Notes: generated by a model not told the origin, from the sequence alone. Counted from the stretch's first letter, positions 6,791-20,146 are shown. The stretch: 32,000 nucleotides of DNA from Rhodoferax sp. (GCA_008015235.1 SSFF01000015.1:58727-90726); one strand, 5' to 3'. Translations and numbers: made by a program.

Positions 6791-7795
6791 ATGCTTGATG
6801 ACCGTTCCAAGATGTTGATGAAGGCGCTGGTGGAGCGCTATATCGCCGACGGGCAGCCCGTGGGGAGCCGCACGCTCTCGCGCGCATCGGGTCTGGAGCT
6901 GTCGCCCGCCACCATCCGCAACGTGATGGCTGACCTGGAGGAGCTGGGCTTGATCGCGAGTCCGCACACCTCGGCCGGGCGCATTCCCACCGCACGCGGC
7001 TACCGCCTGTTTGTGGACACCATGCTCACGGTGCAGCACGACAACCTGCCGGCCCAAAGCCTGGCGCCGGGGCAGCCCCAGCGCGTGATTTCCAACGCCG
7101 CCAATTTGCTTTCCAGCCTGTCGCAGTTTGTGGGCGTGGTCATGGCGCCCAAGCGTGCTTCGGTGTTCCGCCATATCGAGTTCTTGCGTTTGTCGGAGCG
7201 CCGGGTGCTGGTCATCATCGTCTCGCCCGATGGTGACGTGCAAAACCGCGTCATCTTTACCGAGGTGGACTACACCCAGAGCCAGTTGGTGGAGGCGGCC
7301 AACCACCTCAACACCCATTACCTGGGGCTGGACATCGACCAGGTGCGCGAAAAGCTGCAAAACGAAGTGGAGAGCCTGCGCACTGAAATTGCGGCGCTCA
7401 TGCAGGCGGCCGTCACGGTGTCGAGCGAGGCCCTGACCGAAACCGAAGACGAGGTGGTGATCTCGGGCGAACGCAACCTGCTGTCGGTGTCGGACTTTTC
7501 CAGTGACATGGGCAACCTGCGCCGCGCCTTCGAGCTGTTTGAGCAAAAAGCCCAGCTCATGCGCTTGCTCGACGTGGCCGGACAGGCCGACGGTGTGCGC
7601 ATCTTCATCGGTGGCGAAAGCCAGGTGGTGCCGTTTGAAGACCTGTCAATCGTCAGCAGCCCCTACGAGGTGGACGGCAAGGTGGTGGGCACGCTGGGTG
7701 TCATCGGCCCCACGCGCATGGCCTACGACCGCATGATCCAGATCGTGGACATCACCTCCAAATTGGTTAGCAACGCGCTGAGCCACCACAAGTAG
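6791..7795 (+). CDS. hrcA: Heat-inducible transcription repressor HrcA
   Basis: [29 protein letters not shown]...[37 protein letters not shown], a typical HrcA N-terminal wHTH. Divergent from nadK. Confidence 0.92.
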
Positions 7796-7995
7796 GGCCT
7801 GTGGCAGGCGCGACAATTTCTGGTTATTAGCTGTAGTTGAGCAGGTGCCATCCTGGGAGTGTTTGATCACTGTGATGAAGATTGCAAGGAACACACTTAG
7901 TCCATCCCTGCTAGAGCATTTTTTCAATCTACAATGATTCTCAGCGGCTCACTGAGATCCGCGCTTTTAATCTAAATAACCTCAGGGATGAACGT

Positions 7996-8487
7996 ATGAA
8001 GAAATTTGCTTTTGTTGTTGCTGGTCTGTGCCTGACCGCATCGAGCATGGTCATGGCGGCTGGTGAGCAAGGTTCCGGTCCGAGTCCGTACACCGAGTGC
8101 GGTATCGGTGCTGCTATTTTCAAGGAAACCGACTGGGCCGCGGCAACATCGAACGTCACCTGGGACTTGGGCACCACTGCCTTGTCTTCCGCATCCTATT
8201 CTCCAGAAATGTGCTCGCCCAAGAAGGTCAAGGCGGCCATGTTGATCCGTGACAACTACCCCCAGATCGCCGAAGAAATTGCCCGTGGTCAGGGCGAACA
8301 CTTGGACGCCGCACTTGAAATGTTTGGCTGCAACGCAGCAACGCAAACTGCTGCTGCTACGCAAGTGCGCGGTGAGTTTGGTCGCGTAGTTTCCGCTCCT
8401 TCCTATGGTGCTCAGAAGCAGCTCCAGAAGGCTGGTCAGATGTACCAAGTCATCCAGTCTGCTGCGCAAGGTCGTTGCGGCGCCTAA
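7996..8487 (+). CDS. Small secreted protein, DUF3015-like (family recalled from memory)
   Basis: Signal peptide MKKFAFVVAGLCLTASSMVMAAG, then ECGIGAAIF...WDLGTTALSSA. RBS-like GGGATGAACGT lies before the ATG. Confidence 0.6.
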   Translation: MKKFAFVVAGLCLTASSMVMAAGEQGSGPSPYTECGIGAAIFKETDWAAATSNVTWDLGTTALSSASYSPEMCSPKKVKAAMLIRDNYPQIAEEIARGQGEHLDAALEMFGCNAATQTAAATQVRGEFGRVVSAPSYGAQKQLQKAGQMYQVIQSAAQGRCGA

Positions 8488-8507
8488 TGCTGTTGCGTCC
8501 ACAGCAA

Positions 8508-10436
8508 ATGGCCCCTTCGGGGGCTTTTTTTTGGCTGAAACGTTTGGGTGTGTTGCTGCCGTTGGGCTGGCAGGTGGTTGCCCACTCTGCAGCCTTGGCC
8601 TTCGACGGGTCCTCTGGCATTGCAGGTCTTTCCCGTGAAGCGACTTGGTTGCGCCTGCTGCATTACCAAGGCGGCGCACTTGGACGCGCACAGAGTGCGA
8701 TCCACAGCCCAGAATTTTTCCTGGACCCCAACGGTATGGTGGACCCCGCAGCTGAGCTGGACGCCACGGTTCATGCCTTGCGACAACCGGTGGTGCGGGG
8801 CCAAGAAGACAACCATGCGGCATGCCGTTTTCCGGCCCGTAGACAGTGGTTGGAGACCCGAAGCTCGGATTTGCAGAGTGCGCTGAAGGGCACACTCCAG
8901 GATCTGCACTGCCCGGGCTTCGCGGAATGGGGCGGCCCGCAGGGCATAGCATCGATCAGCCTCATGTTCGCCAATGGCTACCTGGGCAACCCGGCGTCCT
9001 ATTACGGCCATTTGTTTCTGAAGTTCAATGCGGAAAAGGGCACGCAGTCGTACCTCGTCGATAAGACGGAAAATTTCGGTGCGCTGGATGTAAAGGGGGA
9101 CAACCCGGTTCAATACATCGTAAAAGCGCTTATTGGAAGCTACGACGGTGGTTTCAGCCAGATAGATTTTTTCTACCATGATGCCGCCTACACGGAGCAT
9201 GAATTTCGCGATTTGTGGGAGTACCGGCTCGACTTGACTCCGTCGGAGATTCGTTTCCTTAGCGCCCACGCATGGGAAGTACACCGCAAGCGCTACACCT
9301 ATTTTTTCTTCCACGACAACTGCGCGTTCCGTGTTGCTGAACTGTTGGAGCTGCTGGACGGCGTGCAGGCCGTGCCACCGGGCGCACCATGGATCATTCC
9401 GCAAGTGGTGGTGAACGTGGTGGCTGCTCAGTCCCGGGATGGCAAGCCTCTGGTGAAAGAGCGCAGACTTCATCCGTCCAGACAGTCGCGTCTGTACCAA
9501 CGCTACAAGGCACTGAATGGCGAGCAGCAGGCACTGGTGCGCTCAATTGCGGCGCAGGAAATCGTGCTCAGTGATCCTCCCGTGAAGCGCCAGCCTGAAG
9601 CCGACCAAGCAAGAATGGTCGACACCCTGCTGGATTACTACCAGTTCACCAGTGGCACCACGGAGGCAGGTGGCGACAAGCATCTGCCCAAGGAATACTT
9701 CACGGCACTGAAAACCCGCTTTGAGCTGCCACCTGTTGCCAATGCCTCCAGACCCGTGGCGCAGGATGTGCGGGATGCGCCCGATGCAGGACACCCACCT
9801 GGGTGGGTGCAGATCGGGCTGGGCAGTCAAGAAGGCCATGGTGCAGTGCAGACCATCCGCCTCCGCCCGGCCTATTACGACGACCTGGACAGCGATGCAG
9901 CACAGCCCCCTTGGAGTGGTTTGAGTATGGGTGATCTGACCTTGGAGCGCCAAGGTGAGACGACACACATCAAACGCTTGGATTTCGTAGCCATCAACAG
10001 CAACCGCCCCTCCGTCACCGGGATGCCCGGAGATGGCGGTACCGGTTGGACCGCGCGTTTCGGTGTTGAAAAACAAAGCCTGGCCTGCACCGATTGCCAA
10101 GTGTGGCGCCTTCAAGGGGACTACCGCAAGGTCCTGCCCTTGCCAGTGCCAGACTCCATGCTGGCACTGGGCATGGGCGGTGGCGTTCAATCGAACCGGA
10201 ATGATGAGGGCATGACGTTCGTATCTGCTGTCCTGAAGGTGGCCAAGCGTTTTCAGAACGGTAGTCATCTGAATTTCAGCCAGGAAACCAAGTCACCACT
10301 CGACCGCTCTGAAGCGAGTCGCCATAGCAGTACCTTGGAATGGCGAACACCACTCACCCGGTCGCTGGACCTGCGGCTTTTGTGGGAGCATGACGGTGTG
10401 GCCAGAACCACCATTGGTTTTGGGGCTTACTGGTGA
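8508..10436 (+). CDS. DUF4105 (Lnb N-terminal periplasmic domain) family protein
   Basis: WLRLLHYQ, HSPEFFLDPNG, HAACRFPARRQWL and YYGHLFLKF match my recollection of DUF4105 proteins. Signal-like N-terminus. The start is ambiguous (ATG 8508, TTG 8544 or GTG 8550). Confidence 0.7.
   Translation: MAPSGAFFWLKRLGVLLPLGWQVVAHSAALAFDGSSGIAGLSREATWLRLLHYQGGALGRAQSAIHSPEFFLDPNGMVDPAAELDATVHALRQPVVRGQEDNHAACRFPARRQWLETRSSDLQSALKGTLQDLHCPGFAEWGGPQGIASISLMFANGYLGNPASYYGHLFLKFNAEKGTQSYLVDKTENFGALDVKGDNPVQYIVKALIGSYDGGFSQIDFFYHDAAYTEHEFRDLWEYRLDLTPSEIRFLSAHAWEVHRKRYTYFFFHDNCAFRVAELLELLDGVQAVPPGAPWIIPQVVVNVVAAQSRDGKPLVKERRLHPSRQSRLYQRYKALNGEQQALVRSIAAQEIVLSDPPVKRQPEADQARMVDTLLDYYQFTSGTTEAGGDKHLPKEYFTALKTRFELPPVANASRPVAQDVRDAPDAGHPPGWVQIGLGSQEGHGAVQTIRLRPAYYDDLDSDAAQPPWSGLSMGDLTLERQGETTHIKRLDFVAINSNRPSVTGMPGDGGTGWTARFGVEKQSLACTDCQVWRLQGDYRKVLPLPVPDSMLALGMGGGVQSNRNDEGMTFVSAVLKVAKRFQNGSHLNFSQETKSPLDRSEASRHSSTLEWRTPLTRSLDLRLLWEHDGVARTTIGFGAYW
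8510..8532 (+). terminator. Putative intrinsic terminator after the small secreted protein gene
   Basis: GCCCC-TTCG-GGGGC hairpin followed by T8. It overlaps the first possible ATG (8508) of the next gene. Confidence 0.5.
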
Positions 10437-10554: not shown

Positions 10555-10600
10555 GGGGCGTTAGCTCAGTTGGTTAGAGCAGAGGACTCATAATCCTTTG
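10555..10600 (+). pseudogene. 5' 46 nt of the disrupted host tRNA(CAU) gene (attL side)
   Basis: GGGGCGT-TA-GCTC-AGTTGGTTA-GAGC-A-GAGGA-CTCATAA-TCCTT-TG, then it breaks into TTTTTTCCAAAAAAATTG. There is no T arm or acceptor 3' strand. Confidence 0.85.
10587..10600 (+). repeat. attL core, direct repeat CTCATAATCCTTTG
   Basis: Identical 14-mer at 20102-20115. It covers the anticodon loop plus the 3' anticodon stem. Confidence 0.8.
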
Positions 10601-10680
10601 TTTTTTCCAAAAAAATTGAGCTGATGCGTTGTAAGCGTTGCTACATATAGATAGTTTGCTATTGATAATGTAGCTTTCAT

Positions 10681-10701
10681 GCTTGCACACCGCTTGCACA
10701 C
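10681..10701 (+). repeat. Two tandem GCTTGCACAC motifs (candidate integrase arm-type sites, attL side)
   Basis: GCTTGCACAC at 10681-10690 and 10692-10701. A third copy is at 11085-11094. Degenerate copies lie near the right end. Confidence 0.45.
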
Positions 10702-10750
10702 TTTTTCCCAAAAAGTTGCAACGATTACCACAGTTAAAATTGCGAAGAGT

Positions 10751-11033
10751 GGGGCGTTAGCTCAGTTGGTTAGAGCAGAGGACTCATAAAATTTTGTGCC
10801 ATACGATTGGGAAACTGCGTATGGGATGGCGTCAAATTCGATGAAACCTAAGTGCAGCAATGCATAGGGCAATGTCGAGCCAAGCTTCAGCGCTTTTGTG
10901 CTGTTGAAGGTGTAGAGACTAGACGGCGCCCACCTAAAGCGAAAGCAATGGTGAAGGCATAGTCCAGCGAGTGGCGAAAGTCACACAAAGCAGAATCCTT
11001 TGGTCGTTGGTTCAAGTCCAACACGCCCTACCA
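10751..11033 (+). tRNA. Island-borne tRNA(CAU) interrupted by a group I intron. Exons are 10751-10787 and 10994-11033. It resembles tRNA-Ile2 (lysidine) more than elongator Met.
   Basis: The joined exons give a 77-nt cloverleaf: GGGGCGT TA GCTC AGTTGGTTA GAGC A GAGGA CTCATAA TCCTT TGGTC GTTGG TTCAAGT CCAAC ACGCCCT A CCA. G27-U43, the TGGTC variable loop and the TTCAAGT T loop resemble E. coli ileX as I remember it. Confidence 0.85.
10788..10993 (+). ncRNA. Group I intron, IC3 / Azoarcus pre-tRNA-Ile type, 206 nt, in the anticodon loop after CAU
   Basis: Blocks match my memory of the Azoarcus ribozyme: GTGCC, GGGATGGCGTCAAATTCG, GAAACCTAAG, GAGCCAAGCTTC, GAAGGTGTAGAGACTAGACGGCGCCCACCTAA and GAAGGCATAGTCCAGCGAGTGGCGAAAGTCACACAAAGCAG. 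It ends in G (omega-G 10993). P2-like stem CCATACG/CGTATGG. GTG (10796-10798) can pair with exon CAU. Confidence 0.85.
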
Positions 11034-11084
11034 CTTCTTACAGTGAACTGGCTTTTATAAAAGCGCCAGCACTAGTGTCATTTC

Positions 11085-11094
11085 GCTTGCACAC
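11085..11094 (+). repeat. Third GCTTGCACAC motif, between the island tRNA and int
   Basis: Exact 10-mer match to 10681-10690. Confidence 0.4.
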
Positions 11095-11132
11095 TCATTG
11101 TCCACTGCGACGCATGAAGTTACAGTGTGCGC

Positions 11133-12494
11133 ATGCCTCCAAAAGTTGAATCAACACACGTCTTAATGGACAAAACGCTCGTGCTTTACAGGCGCGAACG
11201 TAGTGGCATTTGGCAGTGTCGTTACAAGGTTGCAGGCGTATGGCAACGAGCTACAACAAAAGAACGCGACATTGAAAAAGCAAAGGATCAGGCCAAGCGC
11301 TTGATGATTGAAGCTGAGTTGCGTAAGCGTGAGAACTTGCCAGTCATCACACGCAGATTTAGAGATGTTGCCAAGCTAGCTGTGCAGCGTTTGGAAGACG
11401 AGCAGAAGAACGGCAAGGGCAAGGTCATCTACAAGGATTACATCCGTGTCATCAACGACGTATGCGTGCCGTTTTTAGGCAAACGCAACATTACGACGAT
11501 TGACTACGCTGTATTGGATGAGTTTGAAACATGGCGTGCAGAGCAGATGGGCAAGGCACCCACACGTAGCACGTTAATGACGCAGAACGCAGCTTTGAAC
11601 AGGGTGTTTGATGAAGCTGTGATACGTGGCTTTTTGATGCAGGCGAACAAGCCCGTGCTTAAGGCAACTGGCAAGAAAAGCGAACGACACGCAGCGTTTG
11701 ACGTGAAAGAAACAAAGGCGCTGCTTGGCAATTTTGATGAGTGGATTGAGCGAGCAAAAAACGACGAAAGTAAAGAGCTGCGAATGCTCTTGCGCGACTA
11801 TGTCCATGCGCTATTAGACACAGGTGCAAGGCCTGGCGACGAGCTGCTGAACTTGAAGTGGAAGCAGGTCAAAGTTGCAATAAAGCCCACTGTTGTGAAG
11901 GAAGGCATTGAAGGCAACGAAGACGCAGTAGATGCACACAACCTGAATTTGAGCTGTGAACTAACGGTTACAGGGAAAACAGGCACACGCACGATGCTTG
12001 GCATGGAGCGCACAGTGAGAGCGTTGCAGCGGATTGCAAAGCGCAATTACAAAGAAGTTGGCGAGCCGCTAGCGCCGTTGAAGCATGTAGCGATTGCTAC
12101 GAACAATGACTACGTGTTCCGCACCAAAGCAAAGGTCAAACCTACGAGTTTTTCAAAGCTGTTTGACACGTACTTAGAAGAGCACAACTTGCTGATTGAC
12201 CCAGCTACGGAGCGCAAGCGTGTCTTCTATAGCCTGCGGCACACATATGCAACGCAAATGCTTACCAACGACGGTGTGCCAATCCACACGCTGGCTAAGC
12301 AAATGGGAACGAGCGTTGTAATGATTGAAAAACACTACAGCCACTTAAAGGCAGTGCAAGCTATTGAGCAACTGCGCGGCGAAGAGACACGCAAGTTGCT
12401 GGAGGCAGGTGGCGTGATTGATGAAATCTATAAAGCAAAGCCAGCGAAGAAGAATGCAAACAAATTGGTTCGCAAAAGTGAGTCAAAGTGCTGA
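11133..12494 (+). CDS. int: Tyrosine-type site-specific integrase
   Basis: LLDTGARPGDEL (box I Arg), YSLRHTYATQML (HxxR) and GTSVVMIEKHYSH (catalytic Tyr). It sits next to the left att end. The start is uncertain (GTG 11127, ATG 11133 or ATG 11166). Confidence 0.9.
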   Translation: MPPKVESTHVLMDKTLVLYRRERSGIWQCRYKVAGVWQRATTKERDIEKAKDQAKRLMIEAELRKRENLPVITRRFRDVAKLAVQRLEDEQKNGKGKVIYKDYIRVINDVCVPFLGKRNITTIDYAVLDEFETWRAEQMGKAPTRSTLMTQNAALNRVFDEAVIRGFLMQANKPVLKATGKKSERHAAFDVKETKALLGNFDEWIERAKNDESKELRMLLRDYVHALLDTGARPGDELLNLKWKQVKVAIKPTVVKEGIEGNEDAVDAHNLNLSCELTVTGKTGTRTMLGMERTVRALQRIAKRNYKEVGEPLAPLKHVAIATNNDYVFRTKAKVKPTSFSKLFDTYLEEHNLLIDPATERKRVFYSLRHTYATQMLTNDGVPIHTLAKQMGTSVVMIEKHYSHLKAVQAIEQLRGEETRKLLEAGGVIDEIYKAKPAKKNANKLVRKSESKC

Positions 12495-12545
12495 ATGGAT
12501 TGGCTATAAACTATTAAGTAGATTAAATATAGAAATGAATAAATT

Positions 12546-13055
12546 ATGTCAGCAAGAAAATCATACACAAGCGTTACTGTTAAGTTGACAGATGGGGATT
12601 TGTGCGATGTTAAAAGATACGTAGATAATTTAATTCGCAGACATGAAAACAATGAAGAGCGAATTGATGAAATTATTGTTATTAATGGAATAGGCTATAA
12701 GCGTGAAGAGATTTATGGCGTAAAAATTTTGCTTGATGAAATTTTGGATAATGATGGCGATTTCATCGAAAGTGATGCGTTGAAGATTGTTGAGTATGTT
12801 GCTCCATCAGATTTCGAAAAGTTTATTGGCGAAGATTTGTACGTAAAGAAAAATGTGGCGGAGTTGAAAATCCGTTTTATTGAATTGCAGTTGATACTGG
12901 ATTTTTTAGATCAGGTTAGGCTGCTATCAGAAATTGAAGAATCTAAGTATTCGTTATGTGAGGTAAATGATTTTACCTTGCCAGATAATTTAGAGAATGG
13001 CACAGATGCTGAAAAGGAGTTGTGGGAAAGCTATAACAGAAGAAATAGAAAATGA
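12546..13055 (+). CDS. Hypothetical acidic protein, 169 aa, very AT-rich gene
   Basis: Long ORF in AT-rich DNA where stop codons are frequent by chance. I recognise no motif. Confidence 0.55.
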   Translation: MSARKSYTSVTVKLTDGDLCDVKRYVDNLIRRHENNEERIDEIIVINGIGYKREEIYGVKILLDEILDNDGDFIESDALKIVEYVAPSDFEKFIGEDLYVKKNVAELKIRFIELQLILDFLDQVRLLSEIEESKYSLCEVNDFTLPDNLENGTDAEKELWESYNRRNRK

Positions 13056-13097
13056 TATGGGCTATCATTGGTGGTCAATTATCAATATATTTCGAAC

Positions 13098-13115
13098 ATC
13101 AAAGATATCTTTGAT
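13098..13115. promoter_or_regulatory. Perfect 18-bp palindrome ATCAAAGATATCTTTGAT upstream of the H-NS gene (candidate operator)
   Basis: Perfect dyad 50 nt upstream of the GTG start at 13165. Confidence 0.35.
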
Positions 13116-13164
13116 AAGAAGTCAACTATCATGTTGGCTCCAATAACTATCGTTTGGAGTAAAC

Positions 13165-13557
13165 GTGGCACGAACAACGTTGGAAACACAACTGGCAAAG
13201 CTGCGTAAGCAGCGTGAGGCAATTGAGGCGAAAGAAAAAGCCTTACTTGCAAGAGCAAATGACAAGGTGATTGCTGAAATCGTCGCCCTTGCAAAGAAGC
13301 ACAACGTGACGATTGAAGAGCTAAGCGATGCGATGGATACTGCAAAGCGAAAGCGTTCTGCTAAAGGTACACGTCATGCAGCTAAAGCCCCCCGCAAAGC
13401 TGCTAAAACTGCTGACAAGCGCGCCAAAGTTGCTCCCAAGTACCGTAATCCTGCGAACGCTGCTGAGACGTGGACAGGGCGTGGCCGTACGCCGTTGTGG
13501 GTGCAGGCACTGAAGACTGCAGGACAGTTGGAAACTGCAGTGATTGCCACTGAATAG
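13165..13557 (+). CDS. H-NS family nucleoid-associated protein (xenogeneic-silencer type)
   Basis: Coiled-coil N-terminus, Lys/Ala-rich linker and a C-terminal YRNPANAAETWTGRGRTPLWV motif (H-NS DNA-binding TWxGRGRxPxW). GGAG lies 6 nt before the GTG. Confidence 0.85.
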   Translation: MARTTLETQLAKLRKQREAIEAKEKALLARANDKVIAEIVALAKKHNVTIEELSDAMDTAKRKRSAKGTRHAAKAPRKAAKTADKRAKVAPKYRNPANAAETWTGRGRTPLWVQALKTAGQLETAVIATE

Positions 13558-13572
13558 CTTTTTTTGCATAGC

Positions 13573-13606
13573 AAAAAAGCCCACTGTTTAACGAGTGGGC
13601 TTTTTT
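13573..13606. terminator. Bidirectional intrinsic terminator between the H-NS gene and the ATPase gene
   Basis: A6-AGCCCACT-GTTTAACG-AGTGGGCT-T6: an 8-bp stem flanked by an A-run and a T-run. Confidence 0.75.
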
Positions 13607-13609
13607 GTT

Positions 13610-13628
13610 GTGTCGTTTTAAACGACAG
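13610..13628 (+). repeat. Hairpin motif copy A: GTGTCGTTTTAAACGACAG
   Basis: 17/19 identical to copies at 15157 and 16353. It overlaps the ATPase stop codon (TTA at 13618-13620 on the plus strand). Confidence 0.65.
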
Positions 13629-14310
13629 CTTGTGAAATTGATGCTGTTCGCAATCGTTGGACTTTTATGATCACTTGCACAATTGCATTCACAACATCTC
13701 GTGCAGAACCATTGAACGGTTCAATGATTTTTACCAACGTCGCATCTTTCACGCTGTTTATCCCAGCATCTGCCAGCATCCTCCGCGTCAGTGGCAGCCA
13801 CTTGCTGGCTGGCGCAGCATTGAATGGGATGCAGTGACAGCGATTGCGCACACCCATTTCGACTTTGTCGAAATAGTTAGTAGTCATTATGAATATCGTC
13901 TGCGGGATATTCATAACTGACTTCAATGTCTGCATGGCCGCAACATTCAAGTTGTCCACTTCGTCCAAAACGAAATAATGGTGACTGGCAAGAGGAAGCA
14001 GAACGGCTTGCTGTTCTAGTTTCGCCATCAACAGCGCTCCGTTGTTGCCTGGCTGTATTCGCTCAAAACGTTCGTTGGCAACGCCATTGCTGCGCATGGC
14101 TTCCATAGCGTTTGGCAGAAGTTGTGCGAGTGCGCTTTTGCCAGTGCCAGGCACACCGTATAGCAAGATGCCATTTTTGCCAGACAACGGAAACGGATGT
14201 GCACCGCAGATGAGATCGTCAACAAGCACCCGCTTGTCATCGTCTGCAAACACTATATCTGCAATGGATTTGGGGGCGTAGTCATTGGGATTGAACATCG
14301 TGTTCGTCAT
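13618..14310 (-). CDS. AAA+ ATPase, clamp-loader (RFC small subunit / DNA pol III delta-prime) like
   Basis: Walker A LLYGVPGTGKSALA, Walker B YFVLDEVDNL, then AMQTLKSVMNIPQTIFIMTTN and GVRNRCHCIPF (SRC-like sensor). ATG at 14310 is preceded by AGGAAG. Confidence 0.8.
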   Translation of the reverse strand: MTNTMFNPNDYAPKSIADIVFADDDKRVLVDDLICGAHPFPLSGKNGILLYGVPGTGKSALAQLLPNAMEAMRSNGVANERFERIQPGNNGALLMAKLEQQAVLLPLASHHYFVLDEVDNLNVAAMQTLKSVMNIPQTIFIMTTNYFDKVEMGVRNRCHCIPFNAAPASKWLPLTRRMLADAGINSVKDATLVKIIEPFNGSARDVVNAIVQVIIKVQRLRTASISQAVV

Positions 14311-14369
14311 AGTCTTCCTTTCTTCTTTTTTGATTCGCTGAGCAGCAATCACTACTCAGCTTTGAGCAA

Positions 14370-15224
14370 TCAGGCTGCTAGTGCTTCAGCAACAGCTTGT
14401 TCTTGTGCAGTGATGGTTAAAGTCGCATCGTTTGCTGCGACCTGTTCTGCGACTTGTGTTTTTGTCTCAGGCTTTGACTTACTTTCGCTGTGGTAGCTGG
14501 CCAGTGCAGCGTTCAATGCAGTGTCGCTTTGCACGACAGCCTGAACAGCGACAGTTCCATCTGCCTGCCAAGTTCCAATCAGCACGACCTGCGCGCCAAT
14601 CTTTCCTGCGTCAAGTTGTGCGCCCAACTGCAAGCCCACAGCGACGCCCATGCTTTTTGTTGCAATGCTGGCTTTAGCCTGCGCGGCCTTCTGCGTGGAA
14701 GATAGCGCGGTGCTGTTGGGTTTTTTGCCCAAGCGAATTGCCTCCACCCCGCCAGCATTGGTGATAAACGTCGCAATTTGATCTGCTGCAACTCCATCTT
14801 GCAGTGCTTTCTGCAGCACCACGCTATAGGCGCTGACACGGCGACGATCTGTGCCGTCATTGCTGGTGCTGTCGCTGAACACGCACTTGACGATCTTGCT
14901 GATCGTGTGGGTTGATTTGAGGAACTTATAGCCCTTTTTGTTGACGTAGTTGTTTAGCGCATCACGCAGCTTCTTTGCTTCATCCCCATCTACCCCCATA
15001 TCCTTGTATAGCTGGTAGCACTTTTGCAGCAAGGCGTACAACATTTCATTGCTCGTACGGTAGACAGTGGTTTCCCACGCCTGACGATCAATTGCCAGTT
15101 GCTCAATGCGTTCAAACGTGTACGTGGGCGCAATAGTGCTGGTGGCATTCGCTGCAGTGTCGTTTTGCACGACAGGCGCAGTGTTAGTGGAAGAAGAGGA
15201 CACGAGAGCGGTAGCGTTTTGCAT
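14370..15224 (-). CDS. Hypothetical protein, 284 aa, upstream partner of the AAA+ ATPase
   Basis: ATG at 15224 is preceded by AAGGAG. The Ser/Thr/Ala-rich termini carry the repeated peptide VVQ(N/S)DTA. I recognise no family. Confidence 0.65.
   Translation of the reverse strand: MQNATALVSSSSTNTAPVVQNDTAANATSTIAPTYTFERIEQLAIDRQAWETTVYRTSNEMLYALLQKCYQLYKDMGVDGDEAKKLRDALNNYVNKKGYKFLKSTHTISKIVKCVFSDSTSNDGTDRRRVSAYSVVLQKALQDGVAADQIATFITNAGGVEAIRLGKKPNSTALSSTQKAAQAKASIATKSMGVAVGLQLGAQLDAGKIGAQVVLIGTWQADGTVAVQAVVQSDTALNAALASYHSESKSKPETKTQVAEQVAANDATLTITAQEQAVAEALAA
14521..14539 (+). repeat. Hairpin motif copy B: GTGTCGCTTTGCACGACAG
   Basis: Inside the 284-aa gene, encoding AVVQSDT on the minus strand. 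Confidence 0.7.
15157..15175 (+). repeat. Hairpin motif copy C: GTGTCGTTTTGCACGACAG
   Basis: Inside the 284-aa gene, encoding PVVQNDT on the minus strand. Confidence 0.7.
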
Positions 15225-15371
15225 TTGGAACTCCTTAGTAATGCAAGTTAATAAAGACAGCGTCAATGTGTTTGCTGCCATCGCCGCATCAGTTTGTTGC
15301 TGCGATGTATGTAATGTATTTTTCATATCAACAATGTGCGATAGTTGAAATAGACGGTTATATTTACAGCT

Positions 15372-16352
15372 ATGAATAGAGCGCAACGTCATTTCTTCAA
15401 AGGACTTCCAAGCTTCGTTGCGCCCAACGACGACATGGAGATAGCTGAAGCGAGGGAGAGCATCTATTACTGGTGGTGGGCCTTTGCGCGGCTCAGTCCA
15501 GTGCTCTGGTATGCAAACCAGACAGGCTTGAAACCCATTGATCCAGCTATCGCAAAAGTGACAGAAGCGCTTGGCGATTTGTGGCGTTACCCAGCCTTTG
15601 GCGTGTGGTGGAAAACACGCGGCAGCAAGGTGTTTGCTGAATCAAAGCGACCAGCAAAGGTGCAGCAACTGGATCTTTCACTACTGCACGAACATCCCTT
15701 TGACAAAGACAAGATGTACGTGGAAGTGCCGCTGAATATTCGCCAGCAGACCATCGTTAGCCAATTCAAAAAGCTATTGGCGCAGGAGCATGAAGGGCGA
15801 GCATTAAATCTTGCAGCTCACAGCACCGCGCACTTGGCACTGCATACAAAGCGCTACAGGCTCAGCACCATTGAAAAGGAGTACTGGGTACTGCTTTACC
15901 GTCTGCTGTACCCAAATATTGAGATTTGGCGTATTGGTGACCGTCTGCAAGTAGCACCACACCTCAAAGTGCGTGACACAGCAGGTGCAGAGGCACTAAA
16001 GCGCAAGCATGCGCTCAATGCTGTCACTGGCCGCTACTACTACAAGGCCAGATTCACGTTGCTTAACTTGGAGCGCGACAGCTTTCCCAACTTCAGCGAA
16101 ATTCACGTCAGTAGTAGGAAGCAGCCATTTGGTAGTGAACACCAAAAAGCATTTCGCGCGGCGACGGAAGATGGAATTGATGGCAAAACCTCTGCATGGG
16201 CACAGTGGTTGAAGGACACTTATTTGGAAGAACTGCACAGAGAGGTCAAGCGCCGTGTCCCGCACTTGGAATACAACATGCGCAGGCCAGAGAGCAATGC
16301 GCGGCACCGCATTCCTGCCTTTGTGGCTGGTACCAGTGACTTGCTGGAGTAA
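15372..16352 (+). CDS. Hypothetical Trp-rich protein, 326 aa
   Basis: Long ORF divergent from the 284-aa gene. N-terminus contains IYYWWWAFARLSPVLWY. I recognise no family. Confidence 0.6.
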   Translation: MNRAQRHFFKGLPSFVAPNDDMEIAEARESIYYWWWAFARLSPVLWYANQTGLKPIDPAIAKVTEALGDLWRYPAFGVWWKTRGSKVFAESKRPAKVQQLDLSLLHEHPFDKDKMYVEVPLNIRQQTIVSQFKKLLAQEHEGRALNLAAHSTAHLALHTKRYRLSTIEKEYWVLLYRLLYPNIEIWRIGDRLQVAPHLKVRDTAGAEALKRKHALNAVTGRYYYKARFTLLNLERDSFPNFSEIHVSSRKQPFGSEHQKAFRAATEDGIDGKTSAWAQWLKDTYLEELHREVKRRVPHLEYNMRRPESNARHRIPAFVAGTSDLLE

Positions 16353-16373
16353 GTGTCGTTTTGCACGACACTT
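16351..16373 (+). repeat. Hairpin motif copy D, extended to a 9-5-9 dyad: AAGTGTCGT-TTTGC-ACGACACTT
   Basis: Starts within the stop codon of the 326-aa gene and ends 7 nt before the recombinase stop. It is intergenic between convergent genes. Confidence 0.7.
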
Positions 16374-16379
16374 GAGTTG

Positions 16380-16946
16380 CTAGACCAATTCCACTGCGTT
16401 GCGCTTCATGTCGTCATTCACATCAATGTATTTCTGTGTCACTGCGATGCTGCGATGACCAGCGAGACTTGCCAGCACACGTACGCCTACGCCTTTGCTT
16501 GCAAGGTTCGTAATAAACGACCTGCGGCCACTGTGGCTACTTGCGCCATCAATGCCTGCCTTGCGATACAGCCAAAAGAAGTGCTGCGTAAGTACGTTTG
16601 CAGTGAATGCCTTTCTACCTGCTGTAACAAACAAAGGTTGTTCTAAGTTGGTCACGCCACGTGCGAACATGTAGCGTTGTAGTTCTGTGCGCAGTTTTTC
16701 GCCAATAAACACAGTGCGAGGATGACGGCCTTTGGTTTGCTCCGCTGCCAAGCGAACTTCGTGTTTGACAGTTCCATCTGCATTCATTACGTCGCCCACT
16801 TTCAAACTTGCAATCTCCCCAACGCGCATGCCTGACCAAAAGCTCGTCAGCAGCATCACGCGATTGCGCAGTGCAAAGCTTCGCGTTGCTATATATGCAA
16901 GTACCTTGTCAATTTCTACTTGTGTAAGTGTTTTTGCTTGTGCCAT
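16380..16946 (-). CDS. Single-domain tyrosine recombinase, 188 aa (FimB/FimE-sized, catalytic domain only)
   Basis: SGMRVGEI (Arg), SSHSGRRSF (HxxR) and AGHRSIAVTQKY (His...Tyr). AAGGAG lies before the ATG. There is no N-terminal arm-binding or SAM-like domain. Confidence 0.85.
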   Translation of the reverse strand: MAQAKTLTQVEIDKVLAYIATRSFALRNRVMLLTSFWSGMRVGEIASLKVGDVMNADGTVKHEVRLAAEQTKGRHPRTVFIGEKLRTELQRYMFARGVTNLEQPLFVTAGRKAFTANVLTQHFFWLYRKAGIDGASSHSGRRSFITNLASKGVGVRVLASLAGHRSIAVTQKYIDVNDDMKRNAVELV

Positions 16947-17306
16947 TTTGTTGCTCCTTTGTGCTTAATAAATACGTGTGTTATTAATGTATTTTCTTAA
17001 GCAGGCATGGGCAACCAAATAATGCAAAGGTCGCTTAATTCATTTCTTATATAGACACCAAAGGAAATAGCAATAAGCTTTGGTGTTTGAGTATTTTTGT
17101 TTCCAGCCCTTTGCAGCACTTCTTCCTGTTCCTGCTGTCTATGCGTGCGCTGTCCCGTTTGCGTTGCTTGTAGCTTGTTTTGTGCGTTCGCTGCGCTGTT
17201 TTCAAACTGTAAGTGCTGGCAGTAATTTTTAGGCAAAGCGAAGCTAATTAAAGCTTCATGCAGCTTTAAGAGTTTCAGCAAGAGGCAAACGTGGCCAGTA
17301 ATGCTG

Positions 17307-17822
17307 TCAAGCCACGTTCCACAGTACATTGTCAGTACTGTGTGCGTTCAGCTCTTTCGTCATGTATTCCATCCAGCCGCTGTCCATTACCTGTACATCG
17401 TGCTGTTCATCCATCCCATCAACCAACGCAATCGCGTTCTTCACCATCTCTTTAAACAGCATGGGCTTTTGTTCAAAGCCGCCTACTGCAAGGTGCAAGT
17501 GCAGACGTTTACCGTTACCAACACCTTCAACCGTTGCAAAGTAGCGCAGGCCTTTGCCGTCTCGCTTTGCTGCATGGCCGTAAGCCTGTTTGTTTAGCTT
17601 CTGTGTAAAGCGTTTGGCAATGCCTTCGCAGTCTTCGCGCTTTAGCTTGCGCATGTAGACGCCATTGTTGTTTTTGACTTTGTACGACTGCTTAAGCGTC
17701 AGCGTGACTGCGAATTGAAACTCCTGCATGTGACCATTTAGCCAGGTGCGTAATGCGTCTTTGCAAGCAGTACGTGCGTTGGCGTTGTAAGCAGTGATCT
17801 CCCGTATGCGCTGTAAGTCCAT
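17307..17822 (-). CDS. Small HUH-motif protein, candidate rolling-circle Rep / Inovirus Gp2 (YfjJ/YagK)-like
   Basis: FAVTLTL (Rep motif I-like), RLHLHLAVGG (His-hydrophobic-His) and WMEYMTKE (Tyr motif), in the canonical order. Start is either ATG 17822 or TTG 17843. Confidence 0.4.
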   Translation of the reverse strand: MDLQRIREITAYNANARTACKDALRTWLNGHMQEFQFAVTLTLKQSYKVKNNNGVYMRKLKREDCEGIAKRFTQKLNKQAYGHAAKRDGKGLRYFATVEGVGNGKRLHLHLAVGGFEQKPMLFKEMVKNAIALVDGMDEQHDVQVMDSGWMEYMTKELNAHSTDNVLWNVA

Positions 17823-17894
17823 GCATATATTTATTCCTGCCAAATAAAACCAAATATTTTTCTTGCCGTTATTTGGTTAGGTCATAAATACAGT

Positions 17895-18110
17895 ATGAGA
17901 TTTTTTGAATTTGCCCCTAAAACACCAACGCTACCCAAGCCAAAAACGCCAGATCAGCAGCGAGTTGCAGTCTTGCAAGGAAACAAGGATCGTGCTGCAG
18001 AAGCTTTGAAGAAGGAGCGGCAACGGCAGCAAGTGAGCAATGCGCAGAAGACGATTGCGAGGGTCAATGCGTCGCAGCCTATGCAAATGCCCAAACCTGC
18101 TACCAATTGA
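17895..18110 (+). CDS. Hypothetical small basic Pro/Lys/Gln-rich protein, 71 aa
   Basis: ORF divergent from the Rep-like gene, followed by a 9-bp stem hairpin GATGTGTTA-CTTTAT-TAACACATC (18109-18132). Confidence 0.4.
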   Translation: MRFFEFAPKTPTLPKPKTPDQQRVAVLQGNKDRAAEALKKERQRQQVSNAQKTIARVNASQPMQMPKPATN

Positions 18111-18290
18111 TGTGTTACTTTATTAACACATCTAAGTCTGCCAAAGCTTTTAGTGCTGTTTGTATGGCCGCATTTGGTTTTGCATGAATTGGATGCGGTA
18201 CCCAGTCATGCTGTACGGGTACAGGTTGCGAAAGAACGAAGGCTGAAAATACATTTGTCTGTGCTTTAACAAATATTGAAAGGAAAGCAC

Positions 18291-18731
18291 ATGGCAACAG
18301 CACTCGCGTCCCTCAAGTTCACAACTGCAAAGAAGTCCAGTCAACTGTCTCCTGTGCAGTCGCGCCGCAACAAGATCATTGCCAAATTGGAAGAGCAGAT
18401 TGCGTTGGCAACTGCGCAGGCAGAAGGGCGTGTGTATGCGCCAGCAAAATTTAAGACGGTGACAGATGCAAACGGCGAACGGCGCAGCGTTGAAACGGCG
18501 AAGCGCGTTAAACAGTGGTGGTTCGCAACAGTAGACGGCAAACTGGCGCTGACGGTGCGTTATGGCGCAAAGGTGCTTGAGTTGGCAAAGGGAAAGAACG
18601 CTGTGGACGTAGGCACTGCCGCGCAATTAGTGCCAGTGCTGACGCTGTTAAAGCAAGCAGCTGAAGCTGGCGAACTGGATGCTGCTATTGAGGCTGCTGG
18701 TGCGGCTTTGCGGAAAGGATTTGCAAAGTAA
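18291..18731 (+). CDS. Hypothetical protein, 146 aa
   Basis: ATG at 18291 is preceded by AAAGGAAAG. Composition is typical of the moderately AT-rich part of the island. Confidence 0.6.
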   Translation: MATALASLKFTTAKKSSQLSPVQSRRNKIIAKLEEQIALATAQAEGRVYAPAKFKTVTDANGERRSVETAKRVKQWWFATVDGKLALTVRYGAKVLELAKGKNAVDVGTAAQLVPVLTLLKQAAEAGELDAAIEAAGAALRKGFAK

Positions 18732-18864
18732 CTGGTATAGTATTTTGACGGATTTGATTTTAGAACTTCTGGCCGCTAAGTGTGGTTTTTTTCCTGCGTC
18801 GTTGGTGTAAGAGGTTTTTTGGACTATTTTTATTGACATTTACTAGATTGTTAGAGGGGGGTCT

Positions 18865-19884
18865 ATGCACTTTTGTTTGAAATTTATTATTTTGTCGCTA
18901 GTTTCATTTTCAGTAAACGCGCAACTTAATGGAGATGCTCGACGTAATTGGATGGGCCAGTATTTTGGAGCCTGCTATAAATCCCAAGTGGCAGATGCGT
19001 CAAATGTCGATGTGCCGCCAGTTATGATTGCTCAATATTGCAGTTGCGCTAGCGAGCAAACAGCGCAGGCATTGACTGATGGTTTGTTGGCAGAAATAGA
19101 TGCTGGGACAAAAAATCTTCCACAAAATATAAACACTGATGCGGCTAAGTTTTGCCTTACAAGTTTTAAAAAATATCCATCGAGTCCATTTGCTGAGAGG
19201 GTGATTAGTAGTGAGTCTGCAAAGAACATTAAGCTCTTTGATGGCACTACACAGCGATTTACGGCATATCGCCAGTTTGTATATGATAAAAATTGGAAGC
19301 TATTGCAAGACAAGGAACTGCCAAATGGCAAATATCTTTTTGATGTTAATTTTGCCCCAAATAGATCTCAAAATTTGGCCAGAGATGTAACCAGTGGTGT
19401 GGTTTATAGTCTTTTTGTTTCAGAGCAGGCGACAGAAGAATCGCGTAAAAAGGGTTTTGATTTTCTATTTTTTGTACCAGAAATTTCTGGTAATCTTGCA
19501 ATTAACTCAGTCAAAAATATTTTCGTTTCACAGTATTTTGATGTGCGAGATGGTAAATTTTATGAAACGCACTATGTTCGTTCTCAGGCGCTCATTTGTT
19601 CCGCATTAAACGAAGCGAAAATTCGTGCTCAAAAATCTATGGCCGCATCGATTTTTAAAGAGCTTCTTCTTGTTGCTATTAAAAGCTATGCTGGAGCAAG
19701 TTATAGCGGTGGAACTTTTACTGGAACAGCAAACGGCGGGACCTTTGTTGGTTCATTTCGTAAATATGACAGTACATGGCTTGGGGAGCACTATTCGCGG
19801 GGGTTGGATGCTGTATTTAACGGTACTGCTAGTTTGGGGGAGATAACTGATGAGCAGAATCGTTTGAAGTGTTCTGAAATTTAA
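18865..19884 (+). CDS. Hypothetical secreted protein, 339 aa, very AT-rich gene
   Basis: RBS AGAGGGGGG, signal peptide MHFCLKFIILSLVSFSVNAQ. I recognise no family. Confidence 0.6.
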   Translation: MHFCLKFIILSLVSFSVNAQLNGDARRNWMGQYFGACYKSQVADASNVDVPPVMIAQYCSCASEQTAQALTDGLLAEIDAGTKNLPQNINTDAAKFCLTSFKKYPSSPFAERVISSESAKNIKLFDGTTQRFTAYRQFVYDKNWKLLQDKELPNGKYLFDVNFAPNRSQNLARDVTSGVVYSLFVSEQATEESRKKGFDFLFFVPEISGNLAINSVKNIFVSQYFDVRDGKFYETHYVRSQALICSALNEAKIRAQKSMAASIFKELLLVAIKSYAGASYSGGTFTGTANGGTFVGSFRKYDSTWLGEHYSRGLDAVFNGTASLGEITDEQNRLKCSEI

Positions 19885-20023
19885 TTCGCTTGAATTTAAT
19901 TTTTTGGAACCCTTTTGTGCGCACTTGATCGATGAGAGGGGGTGTGCAAATACTGCGAATAATTGATGTGTTGCGCATTGCCATTGGCGTGCAAGTCTTA
20001 TAAAAGCAGTAGTTATTTCAGAT

Positions 20024-20045
20024 GCTTACACACTTTGCTGCACAC
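20024..20045 (+). repeat. Degenerate arm-type motifs GCTTACACAC and GCTGCACAC (attR side)
   Basis: Each has 1 mismatch to the GCTTGCACAC consensus. An inverted GTGTGCAA lies at 19942-19949 and GCGTGCAAG at 19987-19995. Confidence 0.4.
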
Positions 20046-20101
20046 TGAAAAAAACCACGCTGTAAACCGCATAAACACTAGGTTTTGTGAAATAAATTTT
20101 T

Positions 20102-20115
20102 CTCATAATCCTTTG
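20102..20115 (+). repeat. attR core, direct repeat CTCATAATCCTTTG
   Basis: Identical to 10587-10600. Confidence 0.8.
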
Positions 20116-20146
20116 GTCGCGGGTTCAAGTCCCTCACGCCCTACCA
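20102..20146 (+). pseudogene. 3' part of the disrupted host tRNA(CAU): anticodon loop to CCA
   Basis: CTCATAA-TCCTT-TGGTC-GCGGG-TTCAAGT-CCCTC-ACGCCCT-A-CCA, preceded by island AT-rich DNA. 10555-10600 plus 20116-20146 equals 77 nt. Confidence 0.85.

Follow-up and report, generated by a model that had tools for sequence, protein, structure and literature searches.

A 17-bp palindrome conserved as a DNA-level signal in a family of tRNA-integrating islands of freshwater Betaproteobacteria

A 17-bp palindrome that occurs four times in a small island of Rhodoferax sp. is a DNA-level signal specific to, and conserved across, a large family of related islands. It is the only recognizable cis-signal of that family. 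The sites are under selection as DNA and symmetric to their central base pair, and their positions are fixed within the family, including those inside the island's own genes. We give a probability of roughly 0.5 to the reading that a sequence-specific protein encoded by the island recognizes the copies, binding them in duplex DNA as a symmetric dimer in the manner of an operator or a centromere. The evidence comes from a 32,000-nucleotide stretch of Rhodoferax DNA, here called the window, and from about 80 related islands and loci. The island family itself seems to be undescribed: no description was found, and searches of the literature on DUF6641, on these islands and on tycheposons turned up neither the motif nor the core genes.

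Four Copies of the Motif in the Window

The pattern GTGTCGYTTTRMACGACA has four exact matches in the 32 kb, whereas 0.03 are expected from 100 dinucleotide shuffles. They lie at 13610, 14521, 15157 and 16353 on the + strand, exactly where a reading of the sequence alone had placed them. The window contains no further match to GTGTCGYTTTRMACGACA, and its 22 kb of host DNA are free of the motif. The sites (S1 to S4) and the features around them are as follows.

10601..20103, low-GC island of 9.5 kb in a tRNA(CAU) gene, containing all four sites
11127-12494, + strand, integrase gene within the island
13567..13607, bidirectional intrinsic terminator hairpin (inverted repeat), separate from S4
13611..13627, S4, perfect 17-bp palindrome TGTCGTTTTAAACGACA, overlapping the ATPase stop codon
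13618..14310, - strand, 230-aa AAA+ ATPase of the RFC/clamp-loader clade
14370..15224, - strand, p284, 284-aa orphan protein, core gene of the island family, carrying S2 and S3
14522..14538, S3, TGTCGCTTTGCACGACA, with one G.T position, in-frame VVQSDT near the p284 C-terminus
15158..15174, S2, 5' coding region of p284, codons 18-23 (VVQNDT)
15225..15371, divergent promoter region between p284 and p326
15372..16352, + strand, p326, 326-aa Trp-rich basic orphan protein (pI 9.7), stop codon abutting S1
16354..16370, S1, TGTCGTTTTGCACGACA, extended dyad 16351-16373
16380..16946, - strand, rec188, 188-aa tyrosine recombinase (PF00589, 9e-25), catalytic domain only

Two copies lie in frame in the p284 gene, as first described, and encode PVVQNDT (15157) and AVVQSDT (14521); their flanking codons are also alike (VVQNDTAANA and VVQSDTALNA). 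The copy at 13610 does overlap the ATPase stop codon (...AVV*) and is followed by the bidirectional intrinsic terminator. The copy at 16353 is indeed a 9-5-9 dyad, AAGTGTCGT-TTTGC-ACGACACTT. It sits between convergent stops, 6 nt from that of the recombinase gene and 0-1 nt from that of p326, whose TAA (16350-16352) it directly abuts. This intergenic site equals the coding site S2 at 19 of 20 nt. S2 falls in a disordered, otherwise unconserved N-terminal stretch of p284, about 200 nt upstream of the divergent p326 start. Only a subfamily keeps S3 at the DNA level: it is perfect in locus L046, present in L062-L064, L069, L071, L075, L078 and L082, and missing from L005-L009 and L012.

The geometry had been described as arms of 7-9 bp around a 5-nt asymmetric spacer. 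The dyads are present, but their arms range from 5 to 9 bp, and the bases read as a spacer are the degenerate interior of an odd palindrome of 17 bp, since the copy at 13610 is a perfect 8-1-8 palindrome (TGTCGTTT-T-AAACGACA). The shared orientation of the copies holds for all four in the window but is not conserved across the family.

The Island and its Core Genes

The island has a GC content of 0.40-0.52, compared with 0.58-0.68 for host DNA, and islands of the family reside in freshwater Polynucleobacter, Limnohabitans and Methylophilaceae. Four core proteins are conserved: p326, p284, the RFC-like ATPase and rec188. The first two are orphans. p284 is encoded in every island and has 502 homologues, with 1168 clusters at 50% identity in a library of 1.84 billion proteins; its AF2 model (pLDDT 73) comprises a basic central helical segment, pI 9.7, and a long C-terminal helix. 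p326, present in diverged form in all islands, is all-alpha and confidently modelled (AF2 pLDDT 88). Scans of both proteins against Pfam, NCBIfam, PHROG and PADLOC gave no match, Foldseek searches with their AF2 models against the PDB and BFVD returned nothing at E < 0.4, and profile searches against PDB sequences yielded zero matches. None of the ten longest among 150 listed p284 relatives carries a fused Pfam domain, no p284 relatives were found in IMG/VR, and the DNA from 13000 to 17900 has no useful similarity to plasmid and phage collections.

The ATPase gene always lies downstream of p284; its product contains a Walker A motif (GVPGTGKS), a Walker B motif (DEVD) and an SRC-like NRC motif. 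The terminator at 13567..13607 is common to the ATPase operon and an H-NS-like gene. The rec188 gene is present in all islands and its product lacks an N-terminal core-binding domain; by inspection, the catalytic R..K..HxxR..H..Y residues appear to be in place, and the enzyme is apparently active. A Rep_ORF2-G2P gene is found in the window island, with homologues, among about 80 loci, only in L021, L041, L046/L047, L051 and L054-L057. The gap between p284 and p326 shrinks in relatives to as little as 36 bp (L017, ORFs 6834-7835 on the - strand and 7872-8669 on the + strand), so the p326 promoter region would have to overlap the N-terminal p284 codons that hold S2.

Conservation of the Motif Across the Island Family

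In about 80 related islands and loci (~549 kb), GTCG-N7-CGAC occurs at 140 distinct sites against an expectation of 5.2. Site density is 0.30/kb within the island gene span versus 0.10/kb outside it, where the copies occupy stretches without core-gene probe coverage, several of them near an island end. Ninety of the sites are non-coding and 50 lie in ORFs. A single island can hold up to 10 near-identical sites, while the Polynucleobacter lineage has only one or two; no other repeated palindrome was found in these site-poor islands.

Three lineage variants preserve the dyad (TGTCGT..ACGACA, AGTCGT..ACGACT and TGTCGG..CCGACA). The GTCG core is invariant among them and the covariation is symmetric. 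The dyad extends to the center, positions 8/10 being complementary in 79 of the 90 non-coding sites and positions 7/11 in 73. Outside the 17-mer, information is down to 0-0.4 bit within 3 bp in the largest class (TGTCGT, 80 sites). The TGTCGG class has similarly weak flanks, but those of AGTCGT sites reach 1.1 and 0.7 bit. Half-site variants without compensation recur. At least 10 sites, at conserved slots, carry an uncompensated TGACG in one half-site (T.T or A.A in the stem), and all six sites of L021 are heterotypic, joining a TGTCGT half to a TGTCGG half, which implies asymmetric recognition in that lineage.

Site type follows the divergence of p284 and the ATPase, with identities of 41-55% for type 1, 38-44% for type 2 and 32-36% for type 3. 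In contrast, it does not track the divergence of the recombinase, for which type 3 (55-65%) exceeds some type 1 islands (48-54%).

Site Positions and Overprinting on Coding Sequence

Sites recur at the same places in the core module. The share of related loci with a site no more than 20 nt from the stop codon is 26 of 48 for p326, 33 of 74 for the ATPase and 24 of 65 for rec188 (32 of 65 at a limit of 60 nt); in the N-terminal region of p284, 46 of 73 loci have one. Of the non-coding sites, 21% begin 0-4 nt past a stop codon, compared with 2% of random intergenic positions. Many sites are at gene 3' ends, pairs of them often flank a terminator, and the order of stop, site and terminator seen at S4 also occurs in L015-L020, L018 and L046. 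Some sites are near the divergent p326/p284 promoters, and in some relatives they are found upstream of p71, p151 or the integrase gene.

The coding copies reveal the level at which selection acts. The N-terminal p284 site conforms to NNT GTC GTN NNN (A/C)AC GAC ANN in 20 of 20 loci; its first Val is always encoded by GTC and its Asp by GAC, even at 37-45% genome GC. Neighboring residues vary, yet the T and the A are kept, and the central codon is free. These frozen codons indicate selection on the DNA and not on the peptide. The frame V-V-x-N-D is used at four coding positions (two in p284, one each in the recombinase and the ATPase), and synonymous positions of coding sites are frozen across genomes of 37-65% GC. 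The earlier view that the copies are something other than chance protein repeats is thus upheld, as they belong to a signal conserved at the DNA level in a large island family.

A Candidate Site for a Dimeric DNA-binding Protein

Each site is an odd palindrome with two 8-bp half-sites, TGTCGT(G/T)T in the window lineage, which a dimer would read independently. The GTCG cores are 11 bp apart, or one helical turn, so both face the same side of the helix. A compact size of this kind is typical of HTH-dimer operators or parS, a class whose dyad-symmetric sites span 12-20 bp. A dimer that binds duplex DNA is favored because the information is contained within 17 bp, the symmetry extends to the central base pair, and half-site variants are uncompensated.

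The sites bracket a conserved divergent unit, with S1 beyond the end of p326, S2 and S3 within the oppositely oriented p284 gene, and S4 at the end of the ATPase gene that follows it. We infer that site occupancy would control or organize this core module. Possible modes are repression, a roadblock, looping or, once the island is excised as a circle, assembly of a complex of the partition/replication type. The best guess for the binding protein is p284, because it is present in every island, has sites within its own gene and combines a basic central helical region with a long C-terminal helix; p326 is a second guess. Isoelectric points do not discriminate among the candidates, and no DNA-binding domain or fold was recognized in the conserved island proteins, p284 and p326 included. 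The window island encodes neither ParA nor ParB, and the ATPase next to p284 is of the RFC type. Host regulators such as LexA, CRP and CIRCE were considered and rejected, since the form of the site changes with the lineage of the island in different hosts.

A plain operator model does not predict many conserved sites away from promoters, at stop codons and flanking terminators. Further observations count against the binding reading: a conserved, apparently active small recombinase without another visible target adjoins S1, the Polynucleobacter lineage manages with so few sites, the sites of L021 are heterotypic, and neither a ParA-type partner nor a DNA-binding domain was recognized. A promoter/terminator scan called none of the four window sites as a promoter.

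Possible Recombination at the Sites

A considerably less likely explanation is that rec188 acts on the motif. The sites would then serve to invert or delete modules or to capture cargo, as in a miniature shufflon or integron, or exchange at S1 would separate excised circles that had formed dimers. A gene for the cognate type of enzyme is adjacent, as the core-site class requires. It occurs in every island with catalytic residues that look intact, and its stop codon is frequently close to a site. Like attC sites, the sites abut stop codons, and intergenic S1 is almost the same as coding S2; every site in L021 is asymmetric. In addition, the p326-p284-ATPase module is inverted relative to rec188/p151 in L018, L014 and the second island of L015, with sites at both junctions in either arrangement. 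It is this inversion that gives recombination some probability. Variable DNA with 0-2 genes also separates paired sites after the ATPase gene (69 bp in L016, 237 bp in L015, 629 bp in L017 and 817 bp in L019).

The resemblance to a tyrosine-recombinase core site, suggested by the sequence-only reading, does not extend to the layout itself. Information resides in 17 bp only, with no arms of 9-13 bp, and the stretch corresponding to the 6-8-bp asymmetric overlap region of core sites is itself a palindrome in most of the non-coding copies, which would abolish directionality. Up to 10 near-identical recombination sites per island, some of them within essential island genes, would be self-destructive; gene order is nonetheless stable in most of the roughly 80 loci. 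An inversion that distinguishes L017 from L019 has junctions without sites in L019, and the recombinase phylogeny does not follow site type. The related idea of cassette boundaries survives in part. Sites do occur at gene and module boundaries, and the ancient inversion has them at both junctions, but no site-bounded mobile cassettes were found in about 80 loci: 20 site-bounded cargo segments were identified, and where homologues of these occur in other slots, no sites flank them. Structural variants that had been predicted were not seen: the 636-bp deletion within p284 was not found in these loci, and no p284 deletion variants appear among more than 500 homologous proteins.

Hairpins, Terminators and Repeats

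That the motif acts as a hairpin in single-stranded nucleic acid is very unlikely, whether as an mRNA 3'-end element or in ssDNA, where it would serve as a primer or be nicked by an HUH enzyme in rolling-circle replication. The mRNA versions comprise a 3'-end stabilizer, a processing site and a protein-dependent terminator. Predicted hairpins of S1, S2 and S4 are more stable than shuffles (z -2.7 to -4.4), symmetric covariation keeps the pairing, and sites abut stop codons upstream of intrinsic terminators, sometimes with one for each of two convergent genes. However, complementarity reaches positions 8/10, which are unable to pair in a hairpin; symmetry this close to the center is superfluous when the loop has 3 nt or more. 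Mid-stem transversions recur uncompensated, L021 sites never pair at 6/12, and the GTCG core is invariant without compensatory drift. Type-1 sites have no T-tract after them and are followed by separate terminators, a G.U bias between sense and antisense (8 vs 3) is not significant, and Rfam has no family on the motif. The HUH proposal, to which the Rep_ORF2-G2P gene of the window island lends some support, is contradicted by the presence of such a gene in only a minority of site-bearing islands and by the uncompensated stem variants. The would-be loop is moreover variable in sequence and drawn into the complementarity, unlike an HUH nick site.

Intrinsic terminators were considered and rejected: none of the four sites was called in the terminator scan, type-1 sites are flanked by G/C and not by T-runs, and S4 precedes a separate canonical terminator.

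It is scarcely credible that the copies arose through repetition of a VVQxDT peptide plus chance, or a REP-like element scattered genome-wide, for although two copies are in frame with similar flanking codons and the C-terminal p284 copy is not conserved as DNA in part of the family, intergenic copies are sequence-identical, most family sites are non-coding, synonymous positions are fixed in all 20 loci compared, chance expectation is low in the window and in the family set alike, and the motif is concentrated in islands, the REP-like distribution that had been named as a refutation being seen neither in the 22 kb of host DNA nor in the flanks of related loci.

Comparison with Known Systems

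The closest parallels to a protein-binding site are KorB-OB of IncP plasmids and ParB-parS. These are likewise short perfect palindromes in several lineage-specific copies over a mobile element, some at promoters and others between convergent genes or inside genes, with a site in or next to the presumed binder gene and an ATPase gene adjacent. parS lies inside the parB/spo0J gene, and ParB, KorB and lambda O all carry sites in their own genes. In contrast to KorB and ParB, neither p284 nor p326 has a detectable ParB/Srx or HTH domain. Unlike ParABS, the island encodes an RFC-clade AAA+ ATPase and not a ParA Walker ATPase, and its sites abut stop codons.

A second parallel is provided by the lambda O iterons in the O gene and the P4 alpha-protein sites (ori, crr), in which palindromic sites lie in frame inside the gene of the binder and the initiator is paired with an AAA+ or loader-type partner gene. 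P4 alpha-protein binding sites are dispersed kilobases apart. The island sites are single and 0.6-1.5 kb apart, unlike the tandem cluster of lambda O beside an AT-rich unwinding region; the island also lacks a recognizable helicase or primase, and p284 resembles no known initiator.

With loxP, dif, the lambda core, attC, sfx and FimB/E sites, the motif shares dyad symmetry and an adjoining tyrosine recombinase gene, and one module inversion has sites at its junctions. It resembles attC in its location at gene ends and sfx in that it can lie in coding sequence. It differs from these sites in having 17 bp without extended arms (lox/dif sites span 28-34 bp, attC sites 57-141 bp), a palindromic center, and many identical copies alongside a stable gene order. 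Genes flanking the island sites are convergent or divergent and not co-oriented as at attC. Integron attC, an imperfect palindrome with R''-L''/L'-R' boxes and extrahelical bases that is served by an IntI-type integrase, was rejected in view of the 17-bp size and the weak match of rec188 to the integron-integrase model (42 bits, cut-off 265).

REP/BIME elements, which have RAYT (HUH) transposases, and DUS/USS are also short palindromic repeats past stop codons. The density of USS/DUS is about one per kb, and those within genes prefer certain reading frames. The present motif differs in being island-restricted, with about one-third of its copies coding, and RAYT is not present.

At the level of the whole element, tycheposons and PICI-like islands (bioRxiv 10.1101/2020.12.28.424599; PMC10872708) are similar: they too are small (7-13 kb), occupy tRNA genes, carry a tyrosine integrase that faces inward from one end, form tandem arrays, bear variable cargo and have streamlined aquatic bacteria as hosts. 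Their described hallmark genes do not include p326, p284, the RFC-like ATPase or the 188-aa recombinase, and a term search of the two papers found no use of "palindrome". Nor did it find any mention of inverted repeats in the Methylophilaceae paper.

Implications for the Island Family

The palindrome offers a clean natural case of coding sequence that also has to carry a DNA signal. The islands in which it occurs integrate at tRNA genes and form a large family in abundant freshwater bacteria; two of their core proteins are orphans for which no sequence or fold relatives were found. The sites provide an experimental handle with which the binding protein could be fished out, the regulatory or segregation logic of the islands defined and further family members found. 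A bolder proposal, speculative and unlikely, is that the RFC/clamp-loader-type ATPase loads p284 onto the sites or assembles it there, yielding a complex for partition, replication or silencing that is unrelated to ParABS, or that a recombinase consisting of the catalytic domain only flips and reassorts modules at ultra-short symmetric sites. If either were true, it would be a cis/trans system of a new kind, shared by a very large island family of freshwater Betaproteobacteria whose p284 proteins fall into more than 1100 clusters at 50% identity.

The palindrome and its island

A sequence-only reading had placed four copies of a hairpin motif in the window, and all four are present there: GTGTCGTTTTAAACGACA at 13610, GTGTCGCTTTGCACGACA at 14521, and GTGTCGTTTTGCACGACA at both 15157 and 16353. 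The degenerate pattern has 4 exact plus-strand matches in 32 kb, where dinucleotide shuffles predict 0.03, and a search of the 32 kb allowing up to 3 mismatches found no more credible copies. All copies lie within a low-GC island (about 10.6-20.1 kb; GC 0.40-0.52 versus 0.58-0.68 in host DNA) with the following genes.

11127-12494, P4-like integrase
13165-13557, H-NS-like gene and 169-aa ORF, cargo past the ATPase terminator
13618-14310, minus strand, 230-aa AAA+ ATPase of the RFC/clamp-loader clade (PHROG 'clamp loader', 3.7e-20; NCBIfam RFC, 1.4e-12)
14370-15224, minus strand, p284, a 284-aa orphan protein
p326, a 326-aa orphan protein, transcribed divergently from p284
rec188, a 188-aa tyrosine recombinase, catalytic domain only (PF00589, 9e-25)
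weak Rep_ORF2-G2P homologue
DUF6641 protein

An ATG at 15224 with an AAGGAG ribosome-binding site marks the real start of p284. Two copies lie in frame within this gene, as had been claimed, encoding PVVQNDT at 15157 and AVVQSDT at 14521, and the copy at 13610 does overlap the ATPase stop codon. The copy at 16353 is indeed a 9-5-9 dyad beside the 3' end of the recombinase gene, but it abuts the p326 stop as well, lying between two convergent stops. The proposal of arms around an asymmetric spacer failed. The copy at 13610 is a perfect 8-1-8 palindrome, and the repeat unit is thus a 17-bp odd palindrome with degeneracy at its inner positions.

The ATPase is a minimal member of its clade, with an SRC-like 'NRC' motif and no collar domain, and by our own reading of its sequence it retains the clamp-loader motifs. 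It always accompanies p284, an unusual pairing for a mobile-element DNA-binding module. Homology between the window and a close relative, the related island locus L046, ends immediately beyond the copy at 13610 and the terminator; the cargo differs, that of L046 comprising an MqsR/MqsA toxin-antitoxin and an N6/N4 methyltransferase (11551-12277, 5072-5869).

Distribution across related islands

Homologues of p284 number 502 in a set of 5.8 billion proteins and 1168 clusters at 50% identity in a representative library; none is annotated and none has a Pfam domain. The window was compared with 45 genomic and 36 metagenomic loci (Polynucleobacter, Limnohabitans, Methylophilaceae and other Burkholderiales), which share a core order in which rec188 converges on p326, p326 diverges from p284, and the ATPase gene follows p284 on the same strand, together with an integrase adjoining a tRNA gene. 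Carriers in culture include Limnohabitans sp. MMS-10A-178 (L008), Polynucleobacter sp. MG-27-Goln-C1 (L018) and P. meluiroseus AP-Melu-1000-B4 (L014). The motif, the core genes and DUF6641 were not described in any paper found by a literature search.

The palindrome recurs across these loci as three lineage variants, in which both halves change together: TGTCGT-N5-ACGACA in the window and its relatives, AGTCGTTTWAAACGACT, which reaches 10 copies per locus, in Methylophilaceae, and TGTCGGTTWAACCGACA, with 1-2 copies, in Polynucleobacter. In about 549 kb of related loci there are 140 distinct GTCG-N7-CGAC sites against 5.2 expected. Within the span of the island genes their density is 0.30 per kb. 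Beyond it the density is 0.10 per kb, and these outside copies lie in stretches without core-gene probe coverage, several of them near an island end.

In L015 (11940-14496), beyond tRNA-Phe, there is a second, tandem module (p326'-p284'-ATPase') that is paralogous but very distant, at about 25% identity, which indicates that the island family is far deeper than the loci compared here. L017, L035, L046 and L069 have tandem islands too.

Architecture of the site

Among 90 non-coding copies the symmetry extends as far as the central base pair, with complementarity at positions 6/12 in 83/90, at 7/11 in 73/90 and at 8/10 in 79/90; coding copies are looser at the inner positions, at about 50%. The site is also compact. 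In the TGTCGT class, the largest (80 sites), information drops to 0-0.4 bit within three positions of the 17-mer, and the flanks of the TGTCGG class are similarly weak, whereas the two positions adjoining AGTCGT-class sites carry 1.1 and 0.7 bit. The GTCG cores are spaced 11 bp apart. At least 10 sites, at conserved slots, have an uncompensated TGACG half (T.T or A.A if folded). Symmetry to the centre, compactness, core spacing and uncompensated variants together fit two 8-bp half-sites read in duplex DNA by a dimer.

In L021, assigned to Propionivibrio, a TGTCGT half is combined with a TGTCGG half in 6/6 sites (1924, 6899, 8030, 8711, 10045 and 11213; orientations mixed). These heterotypic sites are an asymmetric intermediate between two lineage variants.

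Selection on DNA within genes

The p284 N-terminus is disordered in the structure model (pLDDT below 50, residues 1-33) and unconserved apart from V-V-x-(N/H)-D. All 20 of the 20 loci with a site there keep the codons NNT GTC GTN NNN (A/C)AC GAC ANN, in which the first Val is always GTC and Asp always GAC. The flanking residues vary, with P, N, A, G, T, D or K on the N-terminal side and T, S, N or I on the C-terminal side, yet the T and A needed to complete the palindrome are still present in their codons; the central codon, which is the palindrome's centre, is free to vary. This codon usage indicates that selection at the site is on DNA. The same reading frame is reused inside rec188 (TVVLNDK in L015, L016 and L019) and at the ATPase N-terminus (PVVLNDI in L018).

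The C-terminal p284 copy at 14521 is retained as a DNA site in one subfamily only: L046 has a perfect copy, and L062-L064, L069, L071, L075, L078 and L082 also have the site, whereas L005-L009 and L012 have another peptide at this position and the codons of L007 disrupt the site. Residues 16-27 and 227-238 of p284 are alike beyond the palindrome (VVQNDTAANA and VVQSDTALNA; 31 nt, 87% identical), which suggests gene conversion from one site to the other or a duplication within the gene; the two 17-mers of L046 are identical.

Positions of sites relative to genes

Sites occupy recurrent slots: no more than 20 nt from the p326 stop in 26/48 loci, from that of the ATPase in 33/74 and from that of rec188 in 24/65, and within the p284 N-terminal region in 46/73. 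Sites also recur upstream of the island genes p71/p151, and Polynucleobacter has a slot some 130 nt ahead of the integrase start. The p326/p284 intergenic region is as short as 36 bp in relatives, so that the p326 promoter must overlap the p284 N-terminal codons, a possible reason for the copy at 15157 lying inside the p284 gene.

Non-coding sites start 0-4 nt past a stop codon in 21% of cases, compared with 2% of random intergenic positions. At the end of the ATPase gene the stop comes first, then a site, then an intrinsic terminator, often with a second site beyond that terminator or beyond 1-2 cargo genes. Dimer binding accounts poorly for this abutment of stop codons and for the site-terminator-site arrangement.

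A stretch of some 150 bp that is non-coding but conserved (ACTTTTGAATAAAGTTT...CCGTGCT..TGG..GTGG..ATCAGG) terminates in a copy of the 17-bp site (L008 558-705, 14457-14605 and 15843-16003; L002 300-474 and 829-978; L009 2838-2998). In the alignment each locus has 2-3 copies of this element, placed close to the ends of islands or separating tandem ones, and it could be a promoter/leader or small RNA.

Alternative explanations

Service to the minimal recombinase rec188 is a rather unlikely role for the sites. Its best point is an inversion: in L018, L014 and the second L015 island the p326-p284-ATPase module is inverted relative to rec188/p151, with sites at both junctions in both arrangements. 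However, when the rec188 segment is inverted between L017 and L019, the L019 junctions have no sites; cargo genes found in two slots are not bounded by them; and most loci keep a stable gene order despite many identical sites, with no p284 deletion forms seen. Moreover, overall rec188 identity does not track site type, whereas p284 and ATPase identity does, and tyrosine-recombinase core sites have longer arms and an asymmetric overlap. An RNA or single-stranded DNA hairpin is less probable again, because positions 8/10 could not pair and the uncompensated TGACG mismatches would fall mid-stem, where they would matter. Chance, a peptide repeat and a genome-wide REP element are very improbable, given the family-wide recurrence (140 versus 5.2) and the concentration of sites in islands across the loci compared.

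Island ends and the tRNA target

The island splits its target tRNA(CAU) gene into a 5' part (10555-10600) and a 3' part (20116-20146), which when joined fold as tRNA-Met(cat); the split gene is regenerated at neither junction. A complete second tRNA(CAU) gene (10751-11033), about 150 nt inside the island and adjoining the integrase, is the replacement copy for it. This gene contains a 206-nt group I intron (RF00028, 48.4 bits, E 3.8e-11), and splicing it out in silico yields a perfect 77-nt tRNA. The intron lies within the shared att core, between CTCAT and AATCC, and, speculatively, may keep the replacement tRNA from being an integrase target. The nested layout is also found in L051 (about 654 and 11240-11690), which has another host and a 60% identical integrase; L011 and L016, with other integrase subtypes, have an intact intron-less tRNA-Met adjoining the integrase.

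Repeats of GCTTGCACAC near both island ends (10683-10703, 11087-11096 and about 20027-20045; L051 11545-11585), also found in the spacer that separates the tRNA fragment from the tRNA gene with the intron, look like arm-type binding sites of the integrase.

Function of the sites

The closest functional analogues of the palindromes are KorB-OB and ParB-parS, along with lambda O and P4 alpha, whose initiator sites lie inside the initiator gene. Membership in any of these systems is not established, since the island has none of the defining protein domains. Tycheposon and PICI-like tRNA islands have a similar layout but different core genes.

The first candidate binder is p284. Like p326, it has no relatives by sequence, domain or fold. 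Its model combines a confident helical core with a long C-terminal helix, and its central segment, which is basic (pI 9.7), includes the invariant DRRRxSAY motif; p326, an all-alpha protein (pLDDT 88), is basic and rich in Trp. With a probability of about 0.5, the palindromes are operator-like or centromere-like sites to which an island-encoded dimer would bind, and the bound dimer would bracket, and control or organise, the conserved divergent module of these islands.
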